From Nodularia chucula CCY0103 (lineage in GTDB: Bacteria; Cyanobacteriota; Cyanobacteriia; Cyanobacteriales; Nostocaceae): a stretch of DNA of 27,446 bases. Below the pieces are notes generated by a model. The model was not told the DNA's origin. It saw only the letters and a list, made by a program, of their open reading frames with translations, and ran no database searches. Position numbers and translations under genes: made by a program. Numbering within the stretch: position 1 is the stretch's first letter; each line of letters opens with the position of its first letter. The DNA lies in assembly GCF_963923915.1 (NCBI RefSeq), contig NZ_CAWUOL010000071.1, positions 1-27,446 on the forward strand, read 5' to 3'. Of the stretch, positions 669 to 27,446 are shown in pieces.

Positions 669-3600
669 ATGGAATCAGGATCGGCATTCTTATTGCATAA
701 TTTTTTATCTTCCCAATATATACCTCATGGACATTGCTATCTGTGGCAAAAGCCTCTGGTAGCCTTACATTTGCTGAGTGATGCGTTGATTGCGATCGCC
801 TATTTCTCCATTCCCATCATGCTCATCTACTTTGTCAATAAGCGCAGCGATATTCCCTTTTCCAAAGTATTTCTCTTATTTGGCGCGTTTATTATCCTCT
901 GTGGTACAGGACACTTGATGGATATATGGACTCTCTGGCATCCAGATTACTGGTTATCAGGCATCATCAGAGCGCTCACAGCCTTAGTTTCTTGTTATAC
1001 GGCATTGCAACTGGTGGAACTACTACCACAATTTTTAGCATTGCGATCGCCCGAACAATTAGAAGCCATCAACCAAGAACTCCAAATAGAAATAGAAAAA
1101 CGCAAAAGCACCGAAAAAACCCTAGAAATGATCGTTGCAGGTACAGCTTCTGTCACTGGGAATGATTTTTTCCCTGCCTTAGTAGAGAATTTGGCAATGG
1201 CATTAGATGTCACTTATGCCTTCGTTTTTCACACTCTTGATAATTCCTTACAAAAAGTTAAAAGTATTAATTTTTGGGCAGTAGATCATATAGGAGAAAA
1301 CTTTGAATATGAACTAATTAACACCCCCTGCCAAAAAGTGATTCAGCAGAAAATGCTTTGTGCATATAGTAGTGGATTGCAAGATGTTTTTCCTGACAAC
1401 TTATTATTAGAGCAGTTAGAGGCAGAGAGTTACATAGGTGTCCCCTTACTGGACTTAAACGAAAATGTTATTGGCAACCTGTGTATTGTCGATGTTAAAC
1501 CCCTAGAAATCAGCGAACGTACCAAAACACTATTACAAGTTTTTGCAGCACGCGCTTCTGTAGAACTGCAACGGAAATGGGCAGAAGAAGAGAAAAAGCA
1601 GGCTTATGAACAACTAGAATTTCGAGTAGAAGAACGCACCGCAGAACTTGTGGAAGTTAATCACACCCTCGAAAGCGAAATTCAAGAAAGAATTGCCACA
1701 GAAGCCGCAATGAGGGTAATGGCAGAACGGGAAAAAGCCACCAGCCATATCATTCAGCAAATGCGTCAAAGTCTGAATCTGGAATCCATTTTCCAAGCAA
1801 CCACCGCCGAATTACGTCAAGCCGTAGAATGCGATCGCGTCTTAATTTATCGCTTTCAACCAGACTGGAGTGGAGAACTAGTTGCTGAATCTGTATCCAC
1901 ACCTTGGCGTTCTGTGATTCCAGCATCAGATCAAAATAGCAAAATCATAGAAGTAGCCGTAGATCACAACAACTGTTCAATTTTTGAACTAGCCGACTCC
2001 AACGGCATAATCCGTGAGACTTACTTCCAGGAAAACGACGGCAAAATCAGTAAAGAACAATCCACCTATTACTGTGTTAATGACATTTACACCGCAGAAT
2101 TTGATAACTGTTATCTCCAACTATTAGAACAATTACAAGCACGCGCTTATATCATCGCTCCTATTTTCTGTGGTCATCAACTTTGGGGCTTATTGGCAGT
2201 TTATCAAAATGGCACACCACGACAATGGCAAAATCCAGAAATTCAGATTGTTACCCAAATTAGTAATCAACTGGGAGTAGCAGTACAACAGGCGGAATTA
2301 TTTTTCCAAACCCAAGAACAAGCCGCAGAACTCAAAATTGCTAAAGAAGCAGCTGATGCCGCCAGCCTCGCCAAAAGTGAGTTTCTAGCCAATATGAGCC
2401 ACGAATTACGCACTCCACTCAACGCCATTTTAGGTTTTACCCAATTGATGCAACGAGATCAAACCTTGACTCCAGAACATCAGAGATACACAGAAATCAT
2501 TAACCAAAGTGGCGAACATCTGTTAGGGCTAATTAATGATGTTTTGGAAATGTCCAAAATCGAAGCCGGCAGAATGATTTTATGTGAATCAGAATTTGAT
2601 TTGCATGACTTACTGCATAATTTGTTAGCCATGCTGCAATTGAAAGCTATTTCCAAAGGCTTACAACTAACATTTGATTTTGAGCCAACCATACCCCAAT
2701 ACATTAAAACTGATGAACACAAGCTGCGTCAAATCCTAATTAATTTATTGGGTAATGCCATCAAGTTTACTAAAAAAGGACAGGTAACTCTCAGAGCTAA
2801 GTACCAGCAATTACCTGGAAACTCTCAATCAGGATTACCCAAAATACACCATCTATTTTTTGAAATTGAGGATTCTGGAGATGGGATTGCCTCAGAAGAA
2901 ATTGGTCATCTATTTCAAGCATTTCAGCAAACACGCTCAGGACAGCAATCCAAAGAAGGAACAGGTTTAGGATTAAGAATTAGTCAAAAATTTGTGCAAT
3001 TAATGGGTGGTGAAATAACTGTAGAAAGTCAACTAGGTAAAGGCACTTGTTTTAAGTTTAATATTCAAATTGATGTCCCGAAAATTTTACCCATTGACAA
3101 ATTATCCTCTCCCAATTTGGAGAACATTAGTATTGCCACTGGACAAAGTAATTATCGCATTTTAATCGCTGAAGATAATCCTGCCAATCGATTATTAATG
3201 AATAATATCTTGAGCCGTTTTGGTTTTGCTGTGCAGGAAGCAGAAAATGGACAAGAGGCGATCGCACAATGGCAAGAATGGCAACCTCATCTGATCTTCA
3301 TGGATATGCGGATGCCGATTATTAATGGTTATCAAGCAGCGCGGCAAATTCGTGACTTGTCCGCACAATTAAACCATCACAACGGAGAAATTTCCACACC
3401 GACAAAAATTATTGCTCTCACAGCCAGCGCTTTTACCGAACAAAAGCAAGAATGTTTAGATGCAGGTTGCGATGATTTTGTCAGCAAACCATTTCGTTGG
3501 GAAGAAATTTTAGAAACCCTAGCCCAGCATCTAAAATTAGAATACATATATGAAAATACAACCATAACTGAGACTTTCCCTACAGCTAATTACATCCTTG

Positions 3601-3815
3601 ACAGCGCATCTCTAGCCATTATGCCAGCTAGTTGGATTACCGAATTACACCTAGCCGCAGCCCAAGGAAACGATAGCACTAGTCTGGAATTAGTGGCTCA
3701 AATTCCTGCTGAAAACACAGGTTTAATCGCCGCTTTAACTCAATTAATTGAAACATATCAATTTGATCAGATCATAGAACTTACACAAGTCGTAAATTTG
3801 TCAGAAAAGTTATGA
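669..3815 (+). CDS. Hybrid sensor histidine kinase with an N-terminal ETR1-type ethylene-binding domain (EBD-GAF-GAF-HisKA-HATPase-REC)
   Basis: 1048-aa ORF. aa 35-120 ([53 protein letters not shown]...[18 protein letters not shown]) aligns almost residue for residue with the three-helix ethylene-binding domain of Arabidopsis ETR1 as I recall it ([24 protein letters not shown]...[20 protein letters not shown]...LTAVVSCATALMLVHIIP). The Cu(I) ligands are present: Cys78 (nt 900-902) and His82 (nt 912-914), equivalent to ETR1 C65/H69. D38, Y45, I48 and P49 match D25, Y32, I35 and P36. Downstream domains: GAF (aa ~160-300), coiled coil, phytochrome-like GAF (aa ~366-545), H-box SHELRTPLN (His578, nt 2400-2402), HATPase boxes [12 protein letters not shown] / DSGDGI / GTGLGL, REC (Asp879, nt 3303-3305), and a ~110-aa tail of unknown function. 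Confidence 0.9.
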   Translation: [1048 protein letters not shown]

Positions 3816-5140
3816 AAACCTATATAAAAGAGGAAATAGTTGTCGCTGACATTCTCATTGTTGATGATAAATTGGAAAACATTCGGTTTTTATCCGATTT
3901 TTTATCTCAACATAACTATCAAGTCCGCAAAGCTATTCATGGCAAAGCAGCATTAACATCTGTGAAAACCTTGCCACCGGACTTAATACTTTTAGATATT
4001 AATATGCCCATTATGAGCGGGTATGAAGTTTGTCAACACCTCAAAAATGATCCGGAAACTGCGGAAATTCCTGTGATTTTTTTGAGCGCTGGAAATGAAG
4101 TTAATGACAAAGTTTTAGCCTTTGAAGCCGGCGGTATTGACTACATTACCAAACCATTTCATTTAGAAGAGATATTAGTCAGAGTAGAAACTCAATTAAA
4201 GGTACAGAAATTACAAAAAAAATTGCGCGATCGCAATCAAGAAATAGAACGGATGATGCTAGAACTACAAAAAACTGAAGCTACACTCGTTCAAAAAGAA
4301 AAGCTAGTTAGTGCTTGTCAAATTACCGCCGGAATTTCTCATGAGATTAACAACCCCCTGAGTTTTATTATGGGTAATCTCAAACCTGCATCTGAATATA
4401 GTGAAAACTTAATTACTCTGATTGAGCTTTATCAACAAGCCTTTCCAGATGCTACCCCAGAAATTCAAAACTTTGTCAAATATATTGAATTAGATTTTTT
4501 AATTACAGATTTCCGTCAAGTTATTCACTCCCTACATACCGGATCTGAGCGGATTCTTTCGGTGATCAATGCTATGCATATCTTTTCTCGCGTCGATGAA
4601 TCAGGTATCAAACCAATAGATATTCAAGAAAATATCGAAAGTTTGCTGACTATATTAGGTTATAAACTCCTTTCAAAGGATGGTTCATTTAAAATTTGTA
4701 TCATCAAAAACTATGAAAGTATTTCTAAATTTATTGGTCAAGCAAATCTCTTAAATCAAGCCTTACTAAATATCTTCCAAAATGCGATTCAGGCGGTAGA
4801 ATTAAAAATCAACTCAGTACCTAAAAATTCATTTAAACCCACAATCTGGCTGACAACATCCACAACAAACCAAGAGCAAATCAGAATTAGTATTAAAGAT
4901 AATGGTGCAGGAATTTCCCCAGAACACCAATCTCGAATATTTGAACCATTTTTCACCACTAAACCACTGGGTACAGGAATAGGACTAGGTTTATTTACCA
5001 GCTATCAAATCATCACCGAATTTCACCAAGGTAGTTTAACCTACCATTCTTGTCCTGAAGGAGGCTCAGAATTTGTAATTGAAATTCCGGTAAATCAATC
5101 ATATACAAAATCTTATTCCCATCCCTATCATCTTTCATAA
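3812..5140 (+). CDS. Response regulator receiver-histidine kinase fusion (REC, coiled coil, H-box, HATPase_c)
   Basis: 442-aa ORF whose ATG overlaps the upstream stop (ATGA at 3812-3815). It has an N-terminal REC (ILIVDD...DLILLDINMPIMSGY...ITKPF), H-box GISHEINNPL, and ATPase boxes LLNIFQNAIQA, DNGAGI and GTGIGLGL. Confidence 0.9.
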   Translation: MKTYIKEEIVVADILIVDDKLENIRFLSDFLSQHNYQVRKAIHGKAALTSVKTLPPDLILLDINMPIMSGYEVCQHLKNDPETAEIPVIFLSAGNEVNDKVLAFEAGGIDYITKPFHLEEILVRVETQLKVQKLQKKLRDRNQEIERMMLELQKTEATLVQKEKLVSACQITAGISHEINNPLSFIMGNLKPASEYSENLITLIELYQQAFPDATPEIQNFVKYIELDFLITDFRQVIHSLHTGSERILSVINAMHIFSRVDESGIKPIDIQENIESLLTILGYKLLSKDGSFKICIIKNYESISKFIGQANLLNQALLNIFQNAIQAVELKINSVPKNSFKPTIWLTTSTTNQEQIRISIKDNGAGISPEHQSRIFEPFFTTKPLGTGIGLGLFTSYQIITEFHQGSLTYHSCPEGGSEFVIEIPVNQSYTKSYSHPYHLS

Positions 5141-7250: not shown

Positions 7251-7865
7251 TTACTCTTTTGTTTCGCTACCCGCCGATACCAAGTCTCTGGGGCGTTCTG
7301 GTAAAGTCAAAACTGTTTCTGGCAACTGTGAAGATGTTGGTTCTGTGGGTAAATATTCCCGGCGGGCTAAAATGATGGCTCCGACCATTGCTATCAACAA
7401 TAATACTGACGCTAGTTCAAAGGGTAGGAGAAAATCAGTAAAGAAATGCTCACCAATCACAACTATAGAACTTTCGGGAGCGATCGCACCAGGGGTTGAG
7501 GATGCCCAAGGAGTTCCTAATACCATGACGCTCAACAAGCCAAATAATCCCAAACTGACTAACCCGGTCAATATTTTCCGCAGTCCAGCACTGGGAAATG
7601 GGGCGAAATCTTCACGCTTGTTCACCAACATAATGGCAAACAAAATCAAGACGTTAACTGCGCCAACATAAACTAAGACTTGTGCTGCTGCGACAAAATC
7701 ACCATTGAGCAATAGGTAAATTCCCGCCATGCTGATAAATACGCCTCCCAGCAGAAAGGCAGAATAGACGACGTTGGAGAACAGGACTACTCCTAAAGCT
7801 GCTCCAATCATCATCGCGCCCAGTATGGCTAAGGCTACAAACTGTACTCCTTCAGCTAGATTCAC
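7251..7865 (-). CDS. ndhG: NDH-1 subunit 6
   Basis: 204-aa polytopic NuoJ/ND6-like protein. It sits between ndhI and ndhE, as in the conserved cyanobacterial ndhA-I-G-E operon. Confidence 0.9.
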   Translation of the reverse strand: MNLAEGVQFVALAILGAMMIGAALGVVLFSNVVYSAFLLGGVFISMAGIYLLLNGDFVAAAQVLVYVGAVNVLILFAIMLVNKREDFAPFPSAGLRKILTGLVSLGLFGLLSVMVLGTPWASSTPGAIAPESSIVVIGEHFFTDFLLPFELASVLLLIAMVGAIILARREYLPTEPTSSQLPETVLTLPERPRDLVSAGSETKE

Positions 7866-16451: not shown

Positions 16452-16533
16452 GCGGATGTGGCGAAATTGGCAGACGCGCTAGATTTAGGTTCTAGTTCCG
16501 CAAGGAGTGAAGGTTCAAGTCCTTTCATCCGCA
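16452..16533 (+). tRNA. tRNA-Leu (anticodon UAG), class II with long variable arm; CCA not encoded
   Basis: Folded by hand. Acceptor GCGGATG/CATCCGC plus discriminator A. D arm GCG-AAATTGGCAGA-CGC. Anticodon arm CTAGA-TTTAGGT-TCTAG (anticodon TAG). Variable arm TCC-GCAA-GGA. T arm GAAGG-TTCAAGT-CCTTT. Total 82 nt. Confidence 0.9.
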
Positions 16534-17913: not shown

Positions 17914-18948
17914 ATGAACACGACTCATTTAAGTGGCTACTTACTTCAGAAACTACATCCTGTATCTTTACTAGCGCAACTAACTAAGCGCCATGCTACT
18001 GGTTGCTTACGGGTATCTGCTCAAACCGACACTTGGTCAATTCATTTAGAAAATGGTAAACTAACCTACGCCACTTATTCTGAAAGTCTCTTTGACCGTT
18101 TGGATAATCATTTACAACGGTTGAGTCAAAAAAATACCACTGTTGAAAGTGCAACTCGTTCGCAAATGCGACTGATGTTTGAAGCAAAAAATCAAAATCA
18201 ATCGATGTTGTACGCAGATTATCAGGCAATTTGCTGGTTGATAAAGCACAAACATATTACTCCTAACCAAGCAGAAACACTGATAAGTGAATTAGGGAAA
18301 GAAGTTTTAGCAACATTTCTGGTGTTAACAGCAGGAAATTATGAATTTTCCCTGGATAATACTTGGGATGAATTACCAAAATTTTGCCATTTAGATTTAC
18401 AGTCATTAGTAGAATCCTGTCAAAAGCAGTTACGAAATCGGTTAAATATCCAGCCAGAAGTTAACAGTAGTCCACTTGTACGGATAGGAAATACTCCGAA
18501 TATTCAACAGTTTTCTCCAGCCAGAAAGCTAGAAAATCCTGACAACAGTAACTACCCAAATTCGCAGCAGCTTGTGAAAAATAGGCTGTACACAATTGCC
18601 TGTATTGATGATAGTCAAACTGTATTAAATTCTATCAAAATATTTTTAGATGATAGTAAATTTTCAGTAGTTACAATTAATGATCCGGTGAAAGCGTTAA
18701 TGCAAATTCTGCGGAGTAAACCCGACTTAATTTTACTAGATGTCACCATGCCGAATTTAGATGGCTATGAATTGTGTTCTTTATTAAGAAAGCATTCTGG
18801 TTTAAAGGATACCCCCATTATTATGGTGACAGGCAGAACTGGATTTATCGACAAGGCTAAGGCTAAAATGGTCAGATCCTCTGGTTATTTAACTAAGCCT
18901 TTTACACAGCAAGAGTTACTAAAAATGGTGTCAAAATATATGAATTAG
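17914..18948 (+). CDS. PatA-type response regulator (N-terminal PATAN domain plus C-terminal REC); PilG/HmpA/TaxP-like
   Basis: 344-aa ORF. The N-terminal ~170 aa are PATAN-like (LLAQLTKRHATGCLRVSAQTDTWSIHLENGKLTYAT). The C-terminal REC reads YTIACIDDS...DLILLDVTMPNLDGYELC...IIMVTG...YLTKPF. It is the first gene of the chemosensory cluster. Confidence 0.85.
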   Translation: MNTTHLSGYLLQKLHPVSLLAQLTKRHATGCLRVSAQTDTWSIHLENGKLTYATYSESLFDRLDNHLQRLSQKNTTVESATRSQMRLMFEAKNQNQSMLYADYQAICWLIKHKHITPNQAETLISELGKEVLATFLVLTAGNYEFSLDNTWDELPKFCHLDLQSLVESCQKQLRNRLNIQPEVNSSPLVRIGNTPNIQQFSPARKLENPDNSNYPNSQQLVKNRLYTIACIDDSQTVLNSIKIFLDDSKFSVVTINDPVKALMQILRSKPDLILLDVTMPNLDGYELCSLLRKHSGLKDTPIIMVTGRTGFIDKAKAKMVRSSGYLTKPFTQQELLKMVSKYMN

Positions 18949-19016
18949 TTTGGGTATTTCCATGAAGAGAATTGAGTTTTATTTATAGATAGTTTTTTAA
19001 ATCAGGAGGTAGGATC

Positions 19017-19394
19017 GTGAGTATGACTTTATTTTACAAAGTTTTAATTGTAGATGATTCACTTAGTGAATTAGAACTGATGAGCTATTATCTCCAAGAT
19101 AGTGGTTACAAAGTAATTAAGGCTGCTAATGCAAAAGAGGCTTTGAATAAAATTTCTTCCGAAAAAATAGACTTAATTGTTACTGATGTAGTTATGCCTG
19201 GAATGAGTGGATTTGAGCTGTGCCGTTGTCTGAAAAAAAATCCGATGACTCAAAAATTACCAATAGTTATTTGCAGTTCTAAAAATCAAGAGATTGATAA
19301 ATTATGGGCAATGCGACAAGGGGCTGATATCTATTTGACTAAGCCCTATACAAAAGAACAGCTATTGCTGGCTATTAAATCACTGGCGGGTTAA
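19017..19394 (+). CDS. Single-domain CheY-like response regulator (PilH/HmpB-like)
   Basis: 125-aa ORF (GTG at 19017, 7 nt after AGGAGG at 19004-19009; alternative ATG at 19023). Motifs: VLIVDDS...DLIVTDVVMPGMSGFELC...ICSSK...YLTKPY. Confidence 0.9.
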   Translation: MSMTLFYKVLIVDDSLSELELMSYYLQDSGYKVIKAANAKEALNKISSEKIDLIVTDVVMPGMSGFELCRCLKKNPMTQKLPIVICSSKNQEIDKLWAMRQGADIYLTKPYTKEQLLLAIKSLAG

Positions 19395-19398
19395 ACTC

Positions 19399-19896
19399 AT
19401 GAATAATTCCAGAATTATTGTTGAGCAACAGTCTGTTAAGGCTAACTTAGAAAATAGCTATCTGAAGTTTTACTTAAATGAACAAACTCCGGCTATTTTA
19501 TCAATGAATTATGCCCAAGAAGCTGTCATGTTACCAGTTGAACTGGTAACTTCTATGCCAAATATGCTACCTTGTATATTAGGATTAATGAATTGGCGGA
19601 GTCGCGTTATTTGGGCAATTGATTTACCCAAAATGCTGAATTTAGAATCTTTAGAGGGTAGATTAAAGCAATATAAGATTGTAGTGATTCAGGTGGAATC
19701 GCTACTTTTAGGTTTGGTTGTCCATGATATCAAAGGTGTGACTAAGTTTATGCCTGACAGTATTCAGTCTCCTGTAGGACAAGTAGCATCTAGTTTAGTG
19801 CCTTATTTAAGCGGATGTGTGCAGCAATTACCAGAAATATTACTGGTTTTAGATGCTAAATCTCTAGTACATTCTCCGCTTTTTCACAGTAATTAG
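19399..19896 (+). CDS. CheW-like coupling protein (PilI/HmpC-like)
   Basis: 165-aa ORF starting 4 nt after the cheY-like stop. The CheW fold pattern is present (YLKFYL......A.....V.EV......T.MPNM..CILGLMNWRSRVIWAIDL). Confidence 0.85.
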   Translation: MNNSRIIVEQQSVKANLENSYLKFYLNEQTPAILSMNYAQEAVMLPVELVTSMPNMLPCILGLMNWRSRVIWAIDLPKMLNLESLEGRLKQYKIVVIQVESLLLGLVVHDIKGVTKFMPDSIQSPVGQVASSLVPYLSGCVQQLPEILLVLDAKSLVHSPLFHSN

Positions 19897-20058
19897 GTGC
19901 TAGTAACACCATAAGTTTCTTCCTCTTGGCGGAGAGAAGTAACAAGGGGGGATGGGGTTGGGGTAGGATTCAATCTCAGTCAACTGAGAACTACTACATT
20001 TACATCCTCTTAGGTCAGTATAATAGGAAAAAGTAATAATTATTATGGGAATTATCTA

Positions 20059-22146
20059 GTGATATATATTCAACGAGTCAGTTTAAAACCAAAAGTGGTA
20101 ATTTTAGCGATCGCCATCACTACTTTACCAATATTCGGCATGGGTGCGATCGCTTATCAGTTGGCACAGAAATTTACCAATAGACAAATTTACCAATCTC
20201 ATGCAGCCACTGCTACCAGATTAACAGACGAAATTAACCGCTTGATGTTACAGCGCTATGCAGATTTGCAAATTATCGTTAATTCACCATTTTTTACCAA
20301 TACTAGAACCAATATAAATACAACTACTGCCAATAAGCGACAATTTTTAGATGACTTTGTGAATACTGAAGTCTATAGCAGCATCGCTGTGTTTGATCCT
20401 GCTGGTAAATTGATTGCTCAATCTACAGACGCACCTTTAGGTAATGAAAAAACCCCTAAGTCTTTACAAGAAATTATTGCCAAAGATACTGCTGTCATTA
20501 CCCAGCCAGAAGGATCAGTAATTAATATAACTGCACCCATTAAAGATACTGTTAGGGGTAATACTATTGCGGTGGTGAGTGCCGAAATCCCTCTAGAATA
20601 TTTACAAGGGATAACGCAGAATTATACAGATAATGGTAGTCAATATTATTTACTTGACAGTCAGGAGAGAGTTTTTCTCTCAACGCAAACAGAATTATTA
20701 GATGGAACCTTTCCTAAAAATGATTTAACTTCAAGTAGTAAATACACCACAATTCACCCCATTAGAGAACAGCCAAAACTACTGAGTTATGTACCATCAA
20801 TTACAGGAGAAACTTTACCTGGCTTAAACTGGCAATTAATTTTAACTACAGATGAAGCCGTTGCATTGCAACCGCAAGAACAACTATTACGAAGAATAGT
20901 CATAGCTACAGGATTATTCGCATTAATTGGAGGTGGGTTGGGTGTTTTATTAATTCTAAAACTGACACAACCAATTTTAGATGGGGCTATGGCTTTATCC
21001 CAACTAGCGGAAGGTGATTATGATAGCCGTTGGGAAACTCCCACACAATATGATTTAAAGAAACTTAGTGATGAATTTAATCATGTTGCCATCCAATTGC
21101 AAGTTTTAGCCCAACAAGAAGCACTCAAGAGTATGGGGGGAGACCATATTAATGAAGCAATGCAATTGCAACTTTTAGAATTATTGACTCAAGTAGAGAG
21201 TGCAGCTAAAGGTGATTTTACCGTGCGTGCAGAAGTGACGGCGGGACAAATTGGGACTATTTGCGACTTTTTTAATTCCATTGTGGAAAGCCTCAGAGAT
21301 ATTTTCACTGAAGTGAAACAATCTAGTAGCCAAGTAAATCAAGGAATTGGGGCTGATGAAGCTGCTATCCGTAAACTAGCAGAGGAAACACTCACCCAAA
21401 CGGTGGAAATCAACCGTACTATACAGGCTGTTGATCAAATGACTACTTTTATGAAAAGTGTCGCTGAAAATGCGGAAAAAGCAGCAATTATTACTAATAA
21501 TGCGGCTAAGTCTGCTACAAATAGTAGACAAGCAATGGATTTAACAGTAAATAATATTCTGAGTTTGCGGGAAACAGTGGGTGATACTACTCACAAACTC
21601 AAACGCTTGGGAGAATCTACTCAACAAATTTCTCATGTGGTGTCTTTAATCAACCAAATTGCTACCCAAAGTAATTTACTCGCTATCAACGCCAGTATTG
21701 AAGCAGCGCGGGGTGGTGAAGAAGCACAAGGTTTTGCTATGGTTGCGGAAGAGGTGGGAGAATTAGCCATTTGCAGTGCTTCAGCTACTAAAGAAATTGA
21801 GGAAATTGTCACCAATATCCAACGGGAAACTAGCGAGGTTTTACAAGCTATGGAAATCGGAACTTCCCAGGTTATAGAAAGCACTGAAATTGTGGAAGCA
21901 GGGAAGCAAGATTTGCATCAAATTTCGGATGTTTCCCAACAAATAGATTTTTTGGTACAGTCGATTTCTACAGCAACTGCATCTCAATTACAAACATCCC
22001 AAGTTGTGAGTGATTTGATTCAACGTATTGCTGCTATTTCACAACGTACCAGCGATTCTTCTTCTGTGGTTTCTCAATCTCTCCATCAAACTAGGGAAAT
22101 TTCCCAGCAGTTACAAGCAACTGTAGAAACTTTGAAGGTGAGTTGA
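20059..22146 (+). CDS. Methyl-accepting chemotaxis protein (TM, ~250-aa periplasmic sensor, TM, HAMP, MA domain); no GAF/bilin domain
   Basis: 695-aa ORF with a GTG start. TM1 is at aa ~12-33 and TM2 at aa ~280-300. The conserved signalling hairpin tip is NLLAINASIEAARGGEEAQGFAMVAEEVGELA. Confidence 0.9.
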   Translation: MIYIQRVSLKPKVVILAIAITTLPIFGMGAIAYQLAQKFTNRQIYQSHAATATRLTDEINRLMLQRYADLQIIVNSPFFTNTRTNINTTTANKRQFLDDFVNTEVYSSIAVFDPAGKLIAQSTDAPLGNEKTPKSLQEIIAKDTAVITQPEGSVINITAPIKDTVRGNTIAVVSAEIPLEYLQGITQNYTDNGSQYYLLDSQERVFLSTQTELLDGTFPKNDLTSSSKYTTIHPIREQPKLLSYVPSITGETLPGLNWQLILTTDEAVALQPQEQLLRRIVIATGLFALIGGGLGVLLILKLTQPILDGAMALSQLAEGDYDSRWETPTQYDLKKLSDEFNHVAIQLQVLAQQEALKSMGGDHINEAMQLQLLELLTQVESAAKGDFTVRAEVTAGQIGTICDFFNSIVESLRDIFTEVKQSSSQVNQGIGADEAAIRKLAEETLTQTVEINRTIQAVDQMTTFMKSVAENAEKAAIITNNAAKSATNSRQAMDLTVNNILSLRETVGDTTHKLKRLGESTQQISHVVSLINQIATQSNLLAINASIEAARGGEEAQGFAMVAEEVGELAICSASATKEIEEIVTNIQRETSEVLQAMEIGTSQVIESTEIVEAGKQDLHQISDVSQQIDFLVQSISTATASQLQTSQVVSDLIQRIAAISQRTSDSSSVVSQSLHQTREISQQLQATVETLKVS

Positions 22147-22160
22147 TTTGGGGAGAAGCA

Positions 22161-22251
22161 TATAGCCTTGGCGATTAAAATCGCGGCTATACAAACAATG
22201 TCCGCCTGCGCGGACTAACTTAAAATTAAGGTTTTCAACCCGCGTAGGTGG
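22161..22251. repeat. Decayed copy A of a Nostoc-type hairpin MITE (left arm intact)
   Basis: Nested hairpin TATAGCC-TTG-GCGAT-TAAA-ATCGC-GGCTATA (22161-22191). Hairpin GTCCGC-CTGC-GCGGAC (22200-22215). Then GGTTTTCAACCCGCGTAGGTGG (22230-22251). It is related to copy B at 25181-25312. Confidence 0.6.
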
Positions 22252-22334
22252 CCTTCCTGACCGGATGACGCGAACAGTCACGCCTGGTGCAAGATATGTG
22301 GAAATTTATCAATGACTAATGATTAAACAAAGCT

Positions 22335-25145
22335 ATGTCAAAGGATAAAGAGTTAGAAATCCAGATGCAGTTTCTGGAAGAAGCAAGAGATTATTTGAAT
22401 ACTCTAGAGGCGGTGTTGCTGGAAATCGATACTACTAAACGCATTGATGTGGAGAAAATTAATGCTGCATTGCGAGCCGCTCATTCTATTAAGGGCGGTG
22501 CTGGGATGATGGGTTTCCGGACTTTGAGTGATTTAGCTCACCGTCTGGAAGATTCTTTTAAGGTTTTGAAAAGTCGCAAAAATTCCCGCGATTTTGACTC
22601 AGATTTACAAACTTTATTACTTTCTGCTGTTGATTCCCTGCGACAAATTGTAGAATTAGTAGCGCAGGGATATGAGATTAAGAATGAGTGGTTAAGTAGG
22701 GTTTGTTATCCAATATTTGATGAACTGCGCGATCGCCTGGGTGAACCTAGTCCAGAAGATGCTGCTACTATATTATCACCAGAAGATGGACAAGATATTG
22801 TTCCCATGCTGTTTGAAACAGAGGTGGAAGGATGTTTGCAACGTTTGGAGTCGGTATTAGCAAATAGTGCTGATGCTGATTTACAGGAAGAAGTAGTGGT
22901 GATGGCGGCTGAGTTGGGGGGTTTGGGCGAAATGCTGGAATTACCAGCTTTTACAAGTTTGTGTCAATCTATAGAGAATTATATCGGTACTGCTAGCAGC
23001 GATCGCATTCTAGAAATTGCTCAGTTATCATTGCAAACATGGCGGCGATCGCAAGCTTTGATATTAACTAATCAACGAGATAGTTTACCAACACAACTGG
23101 ATTTAACTAATTATACCAGTAATCAACCACAATCAACAGATGGCATCTCTCAGTTGCAACCAGAGAAAGCATCGACAGATAATTTTACATCTGTGAATAT
23201 TCCCGAAACTACTACAATGGTGTATCCAGAGGAGGAAATTACTCTTAGTAAAGATAGGGAAATATCAGAAAATACAGTTAGAGTTCCCAGTAAACAACTG
23301 GAACAAATTAATGATTTATGTGGGGAACTCACTATTCAGCGTAACGGTTTAAATTCCCAACTAGAAAAATTACACAATCTCGTGCTTTCTCTCAATCAGC
23401 GTGTGCAGAGACTTGACCGAGAAAACTATGAATTACGCACAGCATATCGGAAAATTACTCAGACAGAGGATACAGCAGAATTAGCCATCAATTCAGAGGA
23501 TAAAGTAAATGTGCGATCGCAAGAAGTTACAGAAACCATTATCCAAGTCCAAGAAGTCACCACAGACATTCAATTAAGTCTAGATGATACAGAACAAATA
23601 GCCCGGAAACTGAATAAAACATCCAAACAATTACAAAGAAAATTCACACACATTCGGATGCGTCCATTATCCGATTTAATCGAGCGTTTTCCTAGAGCTT
23701 TACATGACCTCAACATTGAATATAGCAAAAACGTTCACTTGCAAGTTGAAGGCGGCAACATCTTAATTGAACGCAGCATTTTAGAAGCCTTAAACGAGCC
23801 AATAATCCACTTATTAAGAAACGCTTTTGATCATGGCATAGAAGACTCAAATACTCGCCGTCAATTAGGAAAACCAGAACAAGGATTAATCGAAATTACA
23901 GCCAGTAACCATCACAACCGTACCATAATTACCATGCGTGATGATGGGCGAGGAATTGATTTAGATAAAATTCGTTCCCGTGCCGTAGCTATGGGTTTAG
24001 ATGCTACCCTAGTTGCCAATGCTAGCGAAGAAGAACTACTATCAATCATTTTTGAACCAGGTTTTACAACATCTGACCAAGTAACAGCCTTATCAGGTCG
24101 TGGAGTGGGTATGGATGTAGTACGAAATAACCTGAAATCAGTGCTGGGAGATATAACAGTTAATACAGAATTAGGAGTTGGCACTACCTTTACTTTATCA
24201 GTACCATTTACACTTTCCGTAGCACGAGTTCTGCTAGTAGAAACCAATAAAATGTTATTGGCGTTTCCCACAGAAGTCATCTCGGAAATATTTTTATTAC
24301 AAAACGAGCAGATATCCTCAACCGGAGATAGTGCAGTTATTAATTGGCAAAATAATCCAATACCATTAATACGCCTCGCTAGTTACTTCCAGTTTAATTG
24401 TCCCCGCTACGATAACCCAGAATTAGAAATTTCCCCAGCCATCGATGCTGACAGTATCATCATAGTCAAAGGCAATAATCAAACAGTCGCCATCCAAGTA
24501 GACCGTTGTTGGGGTGAGCAAGAAGTAGCCATCCGCCAAATAGAGAGTAATATACCTTTACCCGCAGGCTTTAGTAATTGTACAATTCTCGGTGATGGGC
24601 GAGTATTAGCATTAGTAAATACCAACGATTTATTATATTGGATTGCCACTAATCAACGCAGTCCTCAAAATCATCAATTACCATCAGTGACGTTAAAAAC
24701 TCCCTTTCTCTTCTGGGAAAATAATAAACTCTCAGCAACATCTACTACCCATAAAAACACAATTTTAATCATCGATGATTCAATTAATGTTCGCCGCTTC
24801 TTAGCAATGACTTTAGAAAAAGGAGGCTATGAAGTGCAACAAGCAAAAGATGGTCAAGATGCCTTGGAAAAACTCGAAAGTGGTTTGAAAGTTGCCGCCA
24901 TAATTTGTGATATTGAAATGCCTCGTCTCGATGGTTATGGCTTTTTAGATCGGTTAAATTCTAACATAAAAACTAAACATATTCCAGTGACAATGTTAAC
25001 ATCTCGGAGTGGTGAAAAACATAAACAAATAGCGATGCAATTAGGCGCAAAGGCTTATTTTTCTAAACCTTATAATGAGCAAAAATTATTACAAACTATC
25101 GCCGAACTTGTTGGAAATGTTACTGATACAGCAACTTCTAGTTAA
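22335..25145 (+). CDS. CheA-type hybrid histidine kinase (Hpt, dimerisation/coiled coil, HATPase_c, CheW-like, REC); PilL/HmpE-like
   Basis: 936-aa ORF. Hpt motif AAHSIKGGAGMMGF (His50, nt 22482-22484). N-box HLLRNAFDHGIE. G1 DDGRGID. G2 SGRGVGMDVV. A CheW-like domain spans aa ~630-770. The C-terminal REC reads ILIIDDS...ICDIEMPRLDGYGF...SKPY. Confidence 0.9.
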   Translation: MSKDKELEIQMQFLEEARDYLNTLEAVLLEIDTTKRIDVEKINAALRAAHSIKGGAGMMGFRTLSDLAHRLEDSFKVLKSRKNSRDFDSDLQTLLLSAVDSLRQIVELVAQGYEIKNEWLSRVCYPIFDELRDRLGEPSPEDAATILSPEDGQDIVPMLFETEVEGCLQRLESVLANSADADLQEEVVVMAAELGGLGEMLELPAFTSLCQSIENYIGTASSDRILEIAQLSLQTWRRSQALILTNQRDSLPTQLDLTNYTSNQPQSTDGISQLQPEKASTDNFTSVNIPETTTMVYPEEEITLSKDREISENTVRVPSKQLEQINDLCGELTIQRNGLNSQLEKLHNLVLSLNQRVQRLDRENYELRTAYRKITQTEDTAELAINSEDKVNVRSQEVTETIIQVQEVTTDIQLSLDDTEQIARKLNKTSKQLQRKFTHIRMRPLSDLIERFPRALHDLNIEYSKNVHLQVEGGNILIERSILEALNEPIIHLLRNAFDHGIEDSNTRRQLGKPEQGLIEITASNHHNRTIITMRDDGRGIDLDKIRSRAVAMGLDATLVANASEEELLSIIFEPGFTTSDQVTALSGRGVGMDVVRNNLKSVLGDITVNTELGVGTTFTLSVPFTLSVARVLLVETNKMLLAFPTEVISEIFLLQNEQISSTGDSAVINWQNNPIPLIRLASYFQFNCPRYDNPELEISPAIDADSIIIVKGNNQTVAIQVDRCWGEQEVAIRQIESNIPLPAGFSNCTILGDGRVLALVNTNDLLYWIATNQRSPQNHQLPSVTLKTPFLFWENNKLSATSTTHKNTILIIDDSINVRRFLAMTLEKGGYEVQQAKDGQDALEKLESGLKVAAIICDIEMPRLDGYGFLDRLNSNIKTKHIPVTMLTSRSGEKHKQIAMQLGAKAYFSKPYNEQKLLQTIAELVGNVTDTATSS

Positions 25146-25180
25146 GAGGATGTTTTAAAAGTTTTGGGCGAATATAATAG

Positions 25181-25312
25181 AGCCTCCGGCACGCTACGCG
25201 AACGCTACTACACAAGCAAAGTCAACCTCCGTGGACTAATGAAAAATCGAGGTTTTCAACCCGCGCAGGCGGGTTTAGTTTGTGTAGCCGCGACTTCTAG
25301 TCGCCAGGGCTA
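25181..25312. repeat. Decayed copy B of the same MITE family (right arm intact)
   Basis: GGTTTTCAACCCGCGCAGGCGGG (25251-25273) matches copy A at 20/22 in the same orientation. The hairpin AACCCGC-GCAG-GCGGGTT follows. TAGCC-GCGAC-TTCTA-GTCGC-CAG-GGCTA (25285-25312) is the inverted counterpart of the copy A hairpin. The left part carries CACGCTACGCGAACG (25190-25204), also seen at 17152-17166. Confidence 0.6.
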
Positions 25313-25406
25313 GTAATAATCGATACTGTAATAAATTAGACTTTTTTTCTCTGTTGAGAAGTGGTTATACTGAGTAAAATAAGTATAATCTCTGAATATT
25401 ATTGAT

Positions 25407-25862
25407 ATGGAACCAATAACAGCTGCTGCGATCGCCACCCTAGTTTTTTCAGAAGCCTTGAAGGAAGGGGGAAAAGCTTTAGGTAAAGGGGTTTCAGAAC
25501 AAGTTGCTCAACTATTGAGTGCAATTAGGCAGAAATTCCAAGCGGCGGGAATGGAAGGACTACTGAAAAGAGCCGAAGAAAATCCTACAGAAAAGAATAC
25601 CTCAAAGTTCCAGGATGAACTGGAAACGCAAATGGAGGAAGATGCAGCTTTTGCTAATCGGTTGCAAGAACTGATGACCCAGCTAAAAGCCAATCAAACC
25701 ATTAATCAAATAGTCCTCAAGGGAGTCAAGGTACAGGGTAAAGCCAAGGTAGGCGATATAGATTTGACCGCGACAAGAGAGGGTGCAGTGAATCAAGAAG
25801 CGCTGGTTGATTCTCAATTTGGTGATGATCTTGACCTTGGCAATATCAACATGAAGGCTTAG
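25407..25862 (+). CDS. Small helical Bell/HeLo-like putative membrane-targeting effector with a C-terminal double 21-residue amyloid-like motif
   Basis: 151-aa ORF. It has a hydrophobic N-terminal helix (PITAAAIATLVF), a Gly-rich turn (GGKALGKG) and about 95 aa of charged helical sequence. The tail is N/Q/G/V/D-rich and holds two pseudo-repeats (aa 99-119 and 128-148). The ORF stops 4 nt before the NB-ARC gene. The functional call is an inference from architecture. Confidence 0.6.
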   Translation: MEPITAAAIATLVFSEALKEGGKALGKGVSEQVAQLLSAIRQKFQAAGMEGLLKRAEENPTEKNTSKFQDELETQMEEDAAFANRLQELMTQLKANQTINQIVLKGVKVQGKAKVGDIDLTATREGAVNQEALVDSQFGDDLDLGNINMKA

Positions 25863-25866
25863 GATC

Positions 25867-27063
25867 ATGAGCGAAAATCGCCCTAATCCTGAGCAAATAC
25901 GGCAGAACGCCTTTGAGAATGTTCAAGCCCGTGATATAAAAATTGGAGTCTTTAACCAGTCTATAAATCTGGGCGAAACTTCCCAAGCCATTGGTATTCC
26001 GCAAAATTTACCCCTGAGTGGGGTGGTGAAATTTGTGGGACGTGATGAAGAACTGCAAAAACTCCACCAACTTTTACAGGAAAATCACCAAGTAGCCATT
26101 GCTGCGATCGCGGGAATGGGTGGACTGGGTAAAACAGAACTCGCCTTGCAATATGCAATGAGTCAGCGCGACACCTACAAAGGTGGACTGTGCTGGTTAC
26201 AACCGAAAGCTGAGGATGTGGGCGTTCAACTGGTGCGATTTGCCAGAACTCAGCTTGATTTAGAACTACCAAAAGATTTGGTGGATTTACCCGCACAAGT
26301 GCAATTCTGCTTGCGGAATTGGCGTGAGGGTGATGTGCTGCTAGTGGTGGATGATGTCACAGATTACCAGCAAGTCAAAACTTACCTAAATGGGCTATCT
26401 TCCAGATTTAGAGTGTTGATGACTACGCGCCAACTCTTGGGTGCATCCATCAAGCAATTACCTTTGGATGTATTACAACCAGAAGCAGCCTTGGAGTTGT
26501 TACGGTCTTTGCTGGGAGAAACACCAGAGCGAATTGATAGAGAATTAGATGTAGCAAATCAGTTGTGTGCATGGCTGGGATATTTACCCTTGGGTTTGGA
26601 GTTAGTGGGGCGGTATCTGGCGAGGAAACAGGATTTATCCCTCTCGAAAATGATGGGGCGCTTGGATAAAGAGCGATTAGAACAAGCTGCACTTGTTAAG
26701 CTCGACGATGACAACAAAGAAAAATTGGGAGTGAAAGCAGCCTTTGAGTTGAGTTGGCAGGAATTAGCAGAGGATGATCAGCAATTAGGCTGTTTAATCA
26801 GTTTATTTGCAGCTGCACCCATACCCTGGAAATCAGTAGAACAGTGCCTACCAGAAGATGATGAGGAAGATTTAGAGAAAATTCGGGACGATAAGCTGCT
26901 GTATCTGCATTTACTCCAGCGCAAAGGTGAGGGAATCTATCAATTACATCCACTGCTGCGGGAATTTTTCCAGTCTAAGCTTACAGGTTTAGAGCAGGTA
27001 GAGGAATTTAAGCGATCTTTTTGTCAGGTAATGGTAGCAGTAAGCGATCTTTTTGTCAGGTAA
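25867..27063 (+). CDS. NB-ARC (STAND, NLR-type) NTPase module, truncated by a frameshift; the N-terminal 30 aa carry the motif shared with the upstream protein
   Basis: 398-aa ORF. Motifs: FVGRDEELQKL, Walker A GMGGLGKTELA (nt 26113-26136), Walker B VLLVVDDV, LMTTR, GYLPLGLELVG (GLPL-like). It terminates at TAA 27061-27063 inside the second copy of a 32-bp tandem duplication. Confidence 0.85.
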   Translation: MSENRPNPEQIRQNAFENVQARDIKIGVFNQSINLGETSQAIGIPQNLPLSGVVKFVGRDEELQKLHQLLQENHQVAIAAIAGMGGLGKTELALQYAMSQRDTYKGGLCWLQPKAEDVGVQLVRFARTQLDLELPKDLVDLPAQVQFCLRNWREGDVLLVVDDVTDYQQVKTYLNGLSSRFRVLMTTRQLLGASIKQLPLDVLQPEAALELLRSLLGETPERIDRELDVANQLCAWLGYLPLGLELVGRYLARKQDLSLSKMMGRLDKERLEQAALVKLDDDNKEKLGVKAAFELSWQELAEDDQQLGCLISLFAAAPIPWKSVEQCLPEDDEEDLEKIRDDKLLYLHLLQRKGEGIYQLHPLLREFFQSKLTGLEQVEEFKRSFCQVMVAVSDLFVR

Positions 27064-27072
27064 TGGTAGCAG
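27009..27072 (+). repeat. Perfect 32-bp tandem duplication (2 x TAAGCGATCTTTTTGTCAGGTAATGGTAGCAG)
   Basis: Copy 1 is 27009-27040 and copy 2 is 27041-27072, identical at 32/32 when compared base by base. 32 is not a multiple of 3, so the reading frame shifts. Confidence 0.95.
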
Positions 27073-27446
27073 TCGCCCAAGAAATTCCTCACACCCCCAC
27101 ACTTGAGGAAATTAATGCTGTTTCCCTTGCCATACCTCATATAGCTGAAGTAGCAAATCATCTGATTCAATACGTTTGTGATGAAGATTTATATTGGGTT
27201 TTCTTCGGCTTGGGTAACTTCTATGAAGGACAAGGTTTGTATATCCTAGCCGAACCTTGGAGACAGCAGTGTTTATCAACCGCACAAGACCGCTTGGGAG
27301 ACAATCATCCCGATATCGCCGCTAGCCTTAACAACTTGGCAGAACTCTACTGTTCCCAAGGAAGGTACGACCAAGCCGAATCCCTGTATCTCCAAGCTTT
27401 AGAACTCTTTAAACGCCTGCTGGGAGACTATCATCCCAATATCGCC
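27063..27446 (+). CDS. TPR-repeat (kinesin-light-chain-like TPR_12) C-terminal part of the same NLR gene, in the +2 frame; runs off the right edge
   Basis: The frame is open from 27012 to the window end, with ATG at 27063-27065 overlapping the upstream TAA (TAATG). Hand translation: MVAVAQEIPHTPTLEEINAVSLAIPHIAEVANHL...FYEGQGLYILAEPWRQQCLSTAQDRLGDNHPDIAASLNNLAELYCSQGRYDQAESLYLQALELFKRLLGDYHPNIA. Confidence 0.8.
   Translation, partial: MVAVAQEIPHTPTLEEINAVSLAIPHIAEVANHLIQYVCDEDLYWVFFGLGNFYEGQGLYILAEPWRQQCLSTAQDRLGDNHPDIAASLNNLAELYCSQGRYDQAESLYLQALELFKRLLGDYHPNIA

Follow-up and report, generated by a model that had tools for sequence, protein, structure and literature searches.

A candidate Bell/BASS4-NLR amyloid death-switch gene pair in Nodularia chucula CCY0103, with a sensor gene split by a private 32-bp duplication

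Bell/NLR amyloid-relay pairs are the predicted bacterial counterpart of the fungal HET-S/NWD2 system and of RHIM-based necroptosis signalling. The subject of this study is a candidate pair of this kind in the cyanobacterium Nodularia chucula CCY0103, consisting of a gene for a small effector (the Bell side) and, directly behind it, a gene for an NB-ARC-TPR sensor (the NLR side). The whole stretch of DNA that was analyzed, 27,446 nt of contig NZ_CAWUOL010000071.1, is called the window in the following; positions refer to it unless another locus is named, and all features of the pair lie on its forward strand. A model that saw the letters of this DNA had read the locus as a Bell/BASS-type effector gene coupled to an NLR gene (the original prediction).

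BASS4 pairs of cyanobacteria were listed by Dyrka et al. (2020, bioRxiv 10.1101/2020.01.06.895854), whose Table S2 gives OYE01065.1/OYE01066.1 and OYD94771.1/OYD94772.1 under the entry 'bass_04 cya_02'. The strings tabulated for the former pair are TRDGSVEQEMLKGIKAT-NIDLGNLNQE on the Bell side (OYE01065.1) and VVQRILENVWAGRDITIGDIHQ on the NLR side (OYE01066.1), while the Bell-side protein of the latter pair, OYD94771.1, is given with the tail string KSNETINQIVLKGVEVKGKAKVGDINL. On the Bell side, BASS4 frequently comes in repeats in the manner of HET-s, which is also the closest grammatical match of the motif (PMC8086366). In heterologous assays, motifs of a BASS3 pair from Nostoc punctiforme gave rise to prions and fibrils. 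Among bacterial systems, a function has been demonstrated only for the Bell-type amyloid system Bab/Agp (BASS11, TGP sensor), which in E. coli provides abortive-infection phage defence (10.1101/2024.11.07.622273).

The window pair is a Nodularia addition to the published Bell/BASS4-NLR class and not a new kind of system. The effector of one related locus (L014; related loci carry L numbers) is exactly OYE01065.1 of Nostoc 'Peltigera cyanobiont 232', and its alignment with the window protein spans aa 1-151, with 49-51% identity (E=2e-43). The tail of OYD94771.1 is of the same type as the first tail repeat (R1) of the window effector. A listed homologue (OYE01065.1), the shared motif, the gene layout and the MEPIT start of the effector support the class named in the original prediction. 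We consider it probable that the two genes form a Bell/BASS4-NLR amyloid death-switch module whose sensor was split by a private duplication. As in the Nostocales pairs of this class, the motif is placed at aa 96-122 and 125-151 of the effector and at aa ~9-31 of the NLR, the partner is an NB-ARC-TPR protein, and the genes are co-directional with a gap of a few nucleotides. The window pair differs from those of Table S2 in the 32-bp duplication that breaks its NLR gene and in the 'ARDIKIG' subtype of the N-terminal NLR motif (R0). Neither the window pair nor its Nodularia orthologue GAX37122.1 (strain NIES-3585) is found in that table; the absence of GAX37122.1 fits the weak intra-pair motif match. 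New here are the private 32-bp duplication in the NLR gene and the occurrence of the motif at the head of non-NLR partners in other genomes.

HET-S/NWD2 of Podospora anserina resembles the window pair in several respects. The NLR gene is adjacent and carries a single N-terminal motif copy (R0 in the window), the effector ends in two pseudo-repeats of ~21-23 aa with a short loop between them, and an N-terminal helix is proposed for membrane insertion. The loop comprises 6 aa in the window effector and ~15 aa in HET-S, and the window NLR is of NB-ARC-TPR type whereas NWD2 is of NACHT-WD40 type; moreover, the window pair is bacterial, and between the HeLo head of HET-S and the window head no sequence homology or detectable fold homology was found. 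Bab/Agp likewise has a motif common to the effector and the N-terminus of the adjacent sensor. It differs from the window pair in the motif (BASS11, present in a single copy), in its shorter head (~80 aa, PDB 9H9V) and in its location within a prophage defence island, whereas the window pair lies beside housekeeping and chemotaxis-like genes. The antiphage STAND proteins Avast2 and bNACHT02/11/23 ('MEPIS' N-terminus) likewise couple an N-terminal helix of this type to a STAND NTPase, but in them effector and sensor are joined in a single polypeptide and an amyloid relay is not needed.

The effector open reading frame (ORF) extends from 25407 to 25862 (ATG at 25407, TAG at 25860-25862; ORF list) and codes for 151 aa. 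Its product is identical to WP_414529697.1 of N. chucula. Four nucleotides (gatc) separate the effector stop codon from the ATG of the second ORF at 25867, and the two genes are probably co-transcribed. The first piece of the NLR (25867-27063, 398 aa; ORF list, Pfam) contains R0, an NB-ARC NTPase domain (aa 60-272, 26044-26682; Pfam, E=7.5e-15) and a winged-helix/linker region. The sequence FVGRDEEL was located at aa 56-63 (26032-26055), the Walker A motif GMGGLGKT at aa 83-90 (26113-26136) and the Walker B motif LLVVDDV at aa 158-164 (26338-26358). The TPR-encoding remainder follows in another frame (27063-27446; translation, Pfam on the repaired protein), and in the frame-repaired NLR the Pfam families TPR_12 (E=1.8e-27) and TPR_10 (E=1.6e-16) were found at aa 437-514. 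The original prediction had thus described the pair correctly with respect to the 151-aa ORF and its spacing from the NTPase ORF, the three quoted NTPase motifs, and the order of NB-ARC followed, past a frameshift, by TPRs.

A Bell-type helical head occupies aa 1-97 of the effector (25407-25697), as judged by AlphaFold2, alignment and hydropathy. The AlphaFold2 model, based on a 49-sequence alignment, reached a mean predicted local distance difference test score (pLDDT) of 80.9, with values of 88-95 across aa 31-90, and placed helices at aa 6-13, 16-19, 27-47, 50-58, 62-78, and 80-96. A hydrophobic N-terminal 'MEPIT' helix (about aa 4-19) is followed by a Gly-rich turn (EGGKALGKG) and then by four helices; the hydropathy maximum of an 11-residue stretch lies at aa 4-14 (ITAAAIATLVF). 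The N-terminus reads MEPITAAAIATLVF, and E2 is invariant in the 49 homologues. The MEPIT start and the invariant E2 agree with the 'MEPIS' N-terminal signature of Bell, Hell, Bab, and Avast2 (Ibarlosa et al. 2024, 10.1101/2024.11.07.622273). In length and predicted helix content, the effector resembles Bell proteins, which are short (about 120-150 aa) and all-alpha over their N-terminal ~100 aa. The build proposed earlier (hydrophobic N-terminal helix, Gly turn, helices, and a tail rich in N, Q, G, V, and D) was accurate, with predicted helices reaching aa 96, and the small protein contains no enzymatic Pfam domain, in line with the stated absence of enzymatic motifs. Scans with Pfam and PADLOC assigned the small protein to no family. 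The dN/dS ratios (nonsynonymous to synonymous substitution rates) were 0.04-0.15 in the head and 0-0.22 in the tail, which indicates purifying selection on both parts.

Behind the head, the effector carries two pseudo-repeats of the BASS4 motif: R1 at aa 98-120 (25698-25766, TINQIVLKGVKVQGKAKVGDIDL; hhalign, AlphaFold2, string type of Table S2) and R2 at aa 127-149 (25785-25853, AVNQEALVDSQFGDDLDLGNINM; hhalign, AlphaFold2). Both comprise 23 residues and are connected by the 6-aa linker TATREG. The residues N, Q, G, V, and D make up 48% of the tail (aa 98-151) compared to 25% of the head, and the tail contains no proline. AlphaFold2 predicted strands at 99-105, 112-115, and 118-121 over R1 and at 128-134, 141-144, and 147-150 over R2, so that the short strands fall into two groups, aa 99-121 and 128-150, each in register with a repeat.

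The NLR-side copy, R0, was located at aa 10-32 of the NLR (25894-25962, QIRQNAFENVQARDIKIGVFNQS) by a hidden Markov model (HMM) and an alignment of 33 partner N-termini. The consensus of the partner motif is [IV]xQxxFxNVQAxGNITVG[DN]ITQ. Profile-profile comparison with hhalign connected R1 with R2 (P=5.5e-10), R0 with R1 (P=1.2e-7) and R0 with R2 (P=4.5e-8). The R0 HMM of partner N-termini matched the N-terminus of the window NLR at E=2.9e-6. A stricter HMM, made from the N-termini of NB-ARC partners only, with the window and the two relatives nearest to it left out, matched aa 10-31 of the window NLR at E=1.4e-6. In a search of the R0 HMM against 4,967 ORF fragments of the loci, ~30 effector tails, matched at the R1/R2 positions, ranked next after the partner N-termini, and the first unrelated fragment appeared at E about 0.8. 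As far as such sequence comparisons go, the pair carries one motif in three copies (R0, R1, and R2).

Relatives of the effector are numerous. Among 59 close homologues, those with an organism name were cyanobacterial, and the same was true for nearly all named members of the 729 effector representatives found at E<=1e-3 in a library clustered at 50% identity. In a linkage survey of 41 related genome loci, a co-directional gene with the motif at its N-terminus was present behind the effector in about 30, at a distance of 3-5 nt in most of them. In dozens of genomes, the effector gene has kept a partner with the shared motif at its side, and the genes further away differ. None of 43 related loci shared the chemotaxis-like genes found upstream in the window. 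The orthologous pair of Nodularia sp. NIES-3585 (L042, 6001-8283), with 91% nucleotide identity, is flanked by a P450 gene upstream and by HicA/HicB-type toxin-antitoxin genes and DUF433 downstream, a different neighbourhood. A conserved leader (25342-25406; blastn against relatives) precedes the effector gene. DNA homology with L001, L002, L042, and L043 begins at 25342-25366, about 50-65 nt ahead of the effector ATG, and the DNA further upstream is unrelated in the closest relatives. Since the neighbourhoods are unrelated and homology starts just before the effector, the pair behaves as a self-contained cassette.

In other cyanobacteria, the same N-terminal motif was found on partners without NB-ARC. 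These are membrane-anchored TPR proteins lacking an NTPase (L013, 7730-9067; L018, 7540-9564), a NACHT protein with transmembrane segments (L027, 1145-3208), HEAT-like proteins of ~870 aa (L032, 7471-10077; L033, starting near 7441; L036, near 5971) and a protein of 940 aa with no family assigned (L037, 5058-7880). Their leave-out HMM scores extended from 3.7e-4 down to not significant. At L027, an ORF fragment of 59 aa (710-886) between effector and partner matched the R0-type motif at E=8e-8 (NB-ARC-partner HMM); judging by this match, it looks like a leftover of a displaced sensor N-terminus. Heads and tails of the effectors were also found in other combinations. P0054 and P0057 join a divergent head to a window-type tail, whereas P0088, P0112, P0120, P0128, P0148, and P0169 combine a window-type head with unrelated N/G/Q-rich tails; in P0125, P0126, and P0121 the head is part of a fusion with a long C-terminal region (387-682 aa). 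This shuffling shows the modularity that the Bell/BASS concept predicts. Truncated effectors were seen at L016, L035, and L038-L041.

The NLR gene of the window is split at a perfect 32-bp tandem duplication (27009-27072, 2 x TAAGCGATCTTTTTGTCAGGTAATGGTAGCAG; Tandem Repeats Finder, 100% match, 2.0 copies). The duplication creates a premature TAA (27061-27063), which overlaps the ATG at 27063-27065 that opens the TPR frame (TAATG). With one of the two copies deleted, the frame is continuous (...EEFKRSFCQVMVAVAQEIPHTPTLEE...) onward into the TPRs. Within the TPR array the contig breaks off, and the 3' end of the NLR lies beyond it. A single 32-bp copy is present in every relative that aligns over the site, among others, base by base, in L001 (a Nodularia metagenome-assembled genome (MAG), ~91% nucleotide identity), L002 (Anabaena subtropica) and L006 (Nostoc), and, from translation, in Nodularia sp. 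NIES-3585 (L042). As it is missing from the aligned relatives and its two copies are undiverged, the duplication is regarded as private and recent. The NLR of NIES-3585 was considered as a second fragmented NLR and rejected, because the scaffold shows a run of N at the break and not a mutation. In a Nostoc MAG (L003, 7463-9000), the NLR orthologue has an in-frame stop after ~170 aa (REYQQV*PYLP) and the effector is intact; from its reading frame, this appears to be a second broken sensor beside an intact effector.

The proposed relay mechanism and the killing of the cell follow by analogy from HET-S/NWD2 and Bab/Agp, the precedents summarized in 10.1101/2024.11.07.622273. A ligand would bind to the TPR array, upon which the NB-ARC domain would oligomerize. 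The clustered R0 segments could then take up a cross-beta fold and serve as the template on which the effector repeats R1-R2 would form a two-rung beta-solenoid. Helix 1 is cupped by four amphipathic helices in Bell models and in the structure published for Bab. Templating would destabilize the effector head and free helix 1, which would enter the membrane and kill the cell, the purpose being abortive infection or filament-level cell death.

A number of observations speak against the assignment of the window pair to a functional amyloid death switch. The function of Bell/NLR pairs was called still to be elucidated in 2024 (10.1101/2024.11.07.622273), and the amyloid tests in the literature cover motifs of BASS1, BASS3, and BASS11, none of BASS4. 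The remark in the original prediction that no cyanobacterial example had been tested holds for Bell/NLR pairs and for BASS4, but not for the N. punctiforme BASS3 motifs, which were tested heterologously. Within the window pair, the motif match is poor. Against the R0 HMMs, the window effector scored only E=0.24-0.53, with two matches located at R1 and R2. Aligned with its own tail, the window R0 reached a Smith-Waterman score of 22, no better than chance (20.1 +/- 4.2 with shuffled tails, p=0.31); among 21 tails, the cognate one ranked 19th for this R0. By eye, R0 shares ~22-26% identity with R1 or R2; motif pairs that cross-seed experimentally share 43-56%. The 'ARDIKIG' subtype of the window R0 is a poor match to its own tail. 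The earlier statement on a return of the tail motif within the first 30 NTPase residues is therefore upheld at the level of the family (stricter HMM, hhalign) and not within the window pair taken alone, and the BASS4 assignment of this pair follows from family homology rather than from own-pair similarity. In favour of the assignment, cognate R0/tail scores across 21 non-redundant pairs exceeded those of shuffled pairings (41.2 vs. 35.2 +/- 1.5), as anticipated for co-variation in orthologous pairs; the permutation p of about 5e-5 ignores the phylogenetic kinship among the pairs and is thus inflated. Co-variation was clearest by clade. L032, L033, and L036 carry GG...F.F/GNLTQ-type variants on both sides, and L037 has a matched motif variant on effector and partner. 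At L006, R0 reads ENVQVAGNMKVGNINL and the tail KGVQVKGKAKLGNIDL.

The structure of the head and the state of the sensor gene weigh against the assignment. A Foldseek search of the AlphaFold2 model against the PDB returned nothing at E<1, with no match to HeLo, MLKL, or Bab. When the family profile was searched against PDB sequences, chance matches to designed proteins were all that appeared. The top Foldseek rows were the HELLF and HET-s amyloid folds, aligned to the tail, but their E values of 1.4 and 3.9 are not significant. The Pfam families HeLo and Helo_like_N gave nothing at E<1 with the head. Membership of the head in the HET-S (HeLo) family was rejected because neither Pfam nor Foldseek revealed homology to HeLo, and the likeness of aa 1-95 to HeLo/MLKL suggested in the original prediction is not supported as homology by Pfam, Foldseek, or the PDB sequence search. 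For Bell domains, variable topologies are reported by their authors (Ibarlosa et al. 2024, 10.1101/2024.11.07.622273). Finally, the NLR is split and does not form an intact single frame in the window, and with a frameshifted NLR the module may be dead in this genome.

How far the last point counts depends on the duplication itself, which might be an artefact of assembly or sequencing, or present in only part of the population; the NLR would then be intact and the module fully functional. In support of this, the locus sits on a short draft contig (27,447 nt) that terminates within TPR repeats, all relatives have one copy, and the duplicate copies are 100% identical. Assemblers, however, seldom produce a clean 32-bp tandem duplication in unique sequence, and we regard this explanation as unlikely, although it is the one we would take most seriously. 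Most likely, the NLR sensor is inactive here and the effector intact. It is highly improbable that the duplication, instead of being simple decay, serves as a reversible OFF switch of a suicide module, in which slippage that removes one copy would restore the sensor exactly, or that coupled translation at TAATG yields a two-piece NLR whose R0-NB-ARC and TPR polypeptides still signal together; either would be a new way to regulate an amyloid-relay death system. In another reading, the tail is a constitutively folded small beta-solenoid, docking on the R0 strand by heterotypic beta-sheet completion and acting as an adaptor, similar to a death-fold, without self-propagating amyloid. The low identity of R0 and tail in this pair and the ordered strands of the tail in the AlphaFold2 monomer (pLDDT ~66-83) would agree with this. 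However, AlphaFold draws amyloid-like folds also for the validated BASS11 motif, related BASS motifs act as prions, and two effector repeats facing one sensor repeat are the layout of HET-S/NWD2, noted for BASS4 in PMC8086366. We therefore find a mere adaptor distinctly improbable.

A relation of the head to an unrelated family was also considered. The only match was a weak one to NCBIfam GvpT/GvpP over effector aa 9-93 (best E=3e-4, 21.3 bits), which recurs in 22 of 49 family members. On this basis, the small protein could be a helical accessory or stress protein, for example GvpT/GvpP-like, without a role in cell death, and its adjacency to a STAND gene would have no signalling meaning. The curated cut-off of 80 bits is missed by a wide margin, the window holds no gas-vesicle genes, and the effector keeps a motif-sharing neighbour in dozens of genomes despite changing surroundings. 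GvpT/GvpP identity was rejected on the score and the lack of gas-vesicle genes, and we give hardly any credence to an accessory role. The similarity may be compositional, or it may reflect a very remote link among small helical membrane-associated proteins.

As a Bell/BASS4-NLR death-switch module, which we continue to prefer, the window locus offers a clean two-repeat effector tail answered by one NLR repeat. Sensor and effector motifs of the family co-vary across clades yet can match poorly within one pair, and the module moves among genomic contexts with a sensor that is easily broken. The window pair is one more, damaged, candidate for a first functional test of the class in cyanobacteria. 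Intact orthologues, as in Anabaena subtropica FACHB-260 and Nodularia sp. NIES-3585, are better experimental material than the damaged copy of the window.

The surroundings of the pair in the window include housekeeping genes, which also lie upstream, and, directly upstream, a chemotaxis-like operon (17914-25145) coding for a DUF4388-REC protein, a small ORF (19017-19394), CheW, MCP and a CheA-CheW-REC hybrid kinase. Two further kinases are encoded near the start of the window: a hybrid histidine kinase (669-3815) with an ethylene-receptor-like ETR1_N domain (E=1.7e-42), GAF domains and a receiver domain, and a REC-histidine kinase (3812-5140). A tRNA at 16452-16533 was the only match in an Rfam scan of the window. 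A promoter and terminator scan of 25050-26000 performed no better than on shuffled sequence. In the intergenic region 5' of the effector, a stretch of ~118 nt (25203-25319) recurs in inverted orientation in Nostoc minutum (L025, 2864-2981) with 84% identity, so that a small dispersed repeat is likely. A GC-rich hairpin within this stretch (25258-25275) may also serve as the terminator of the CheA gene.

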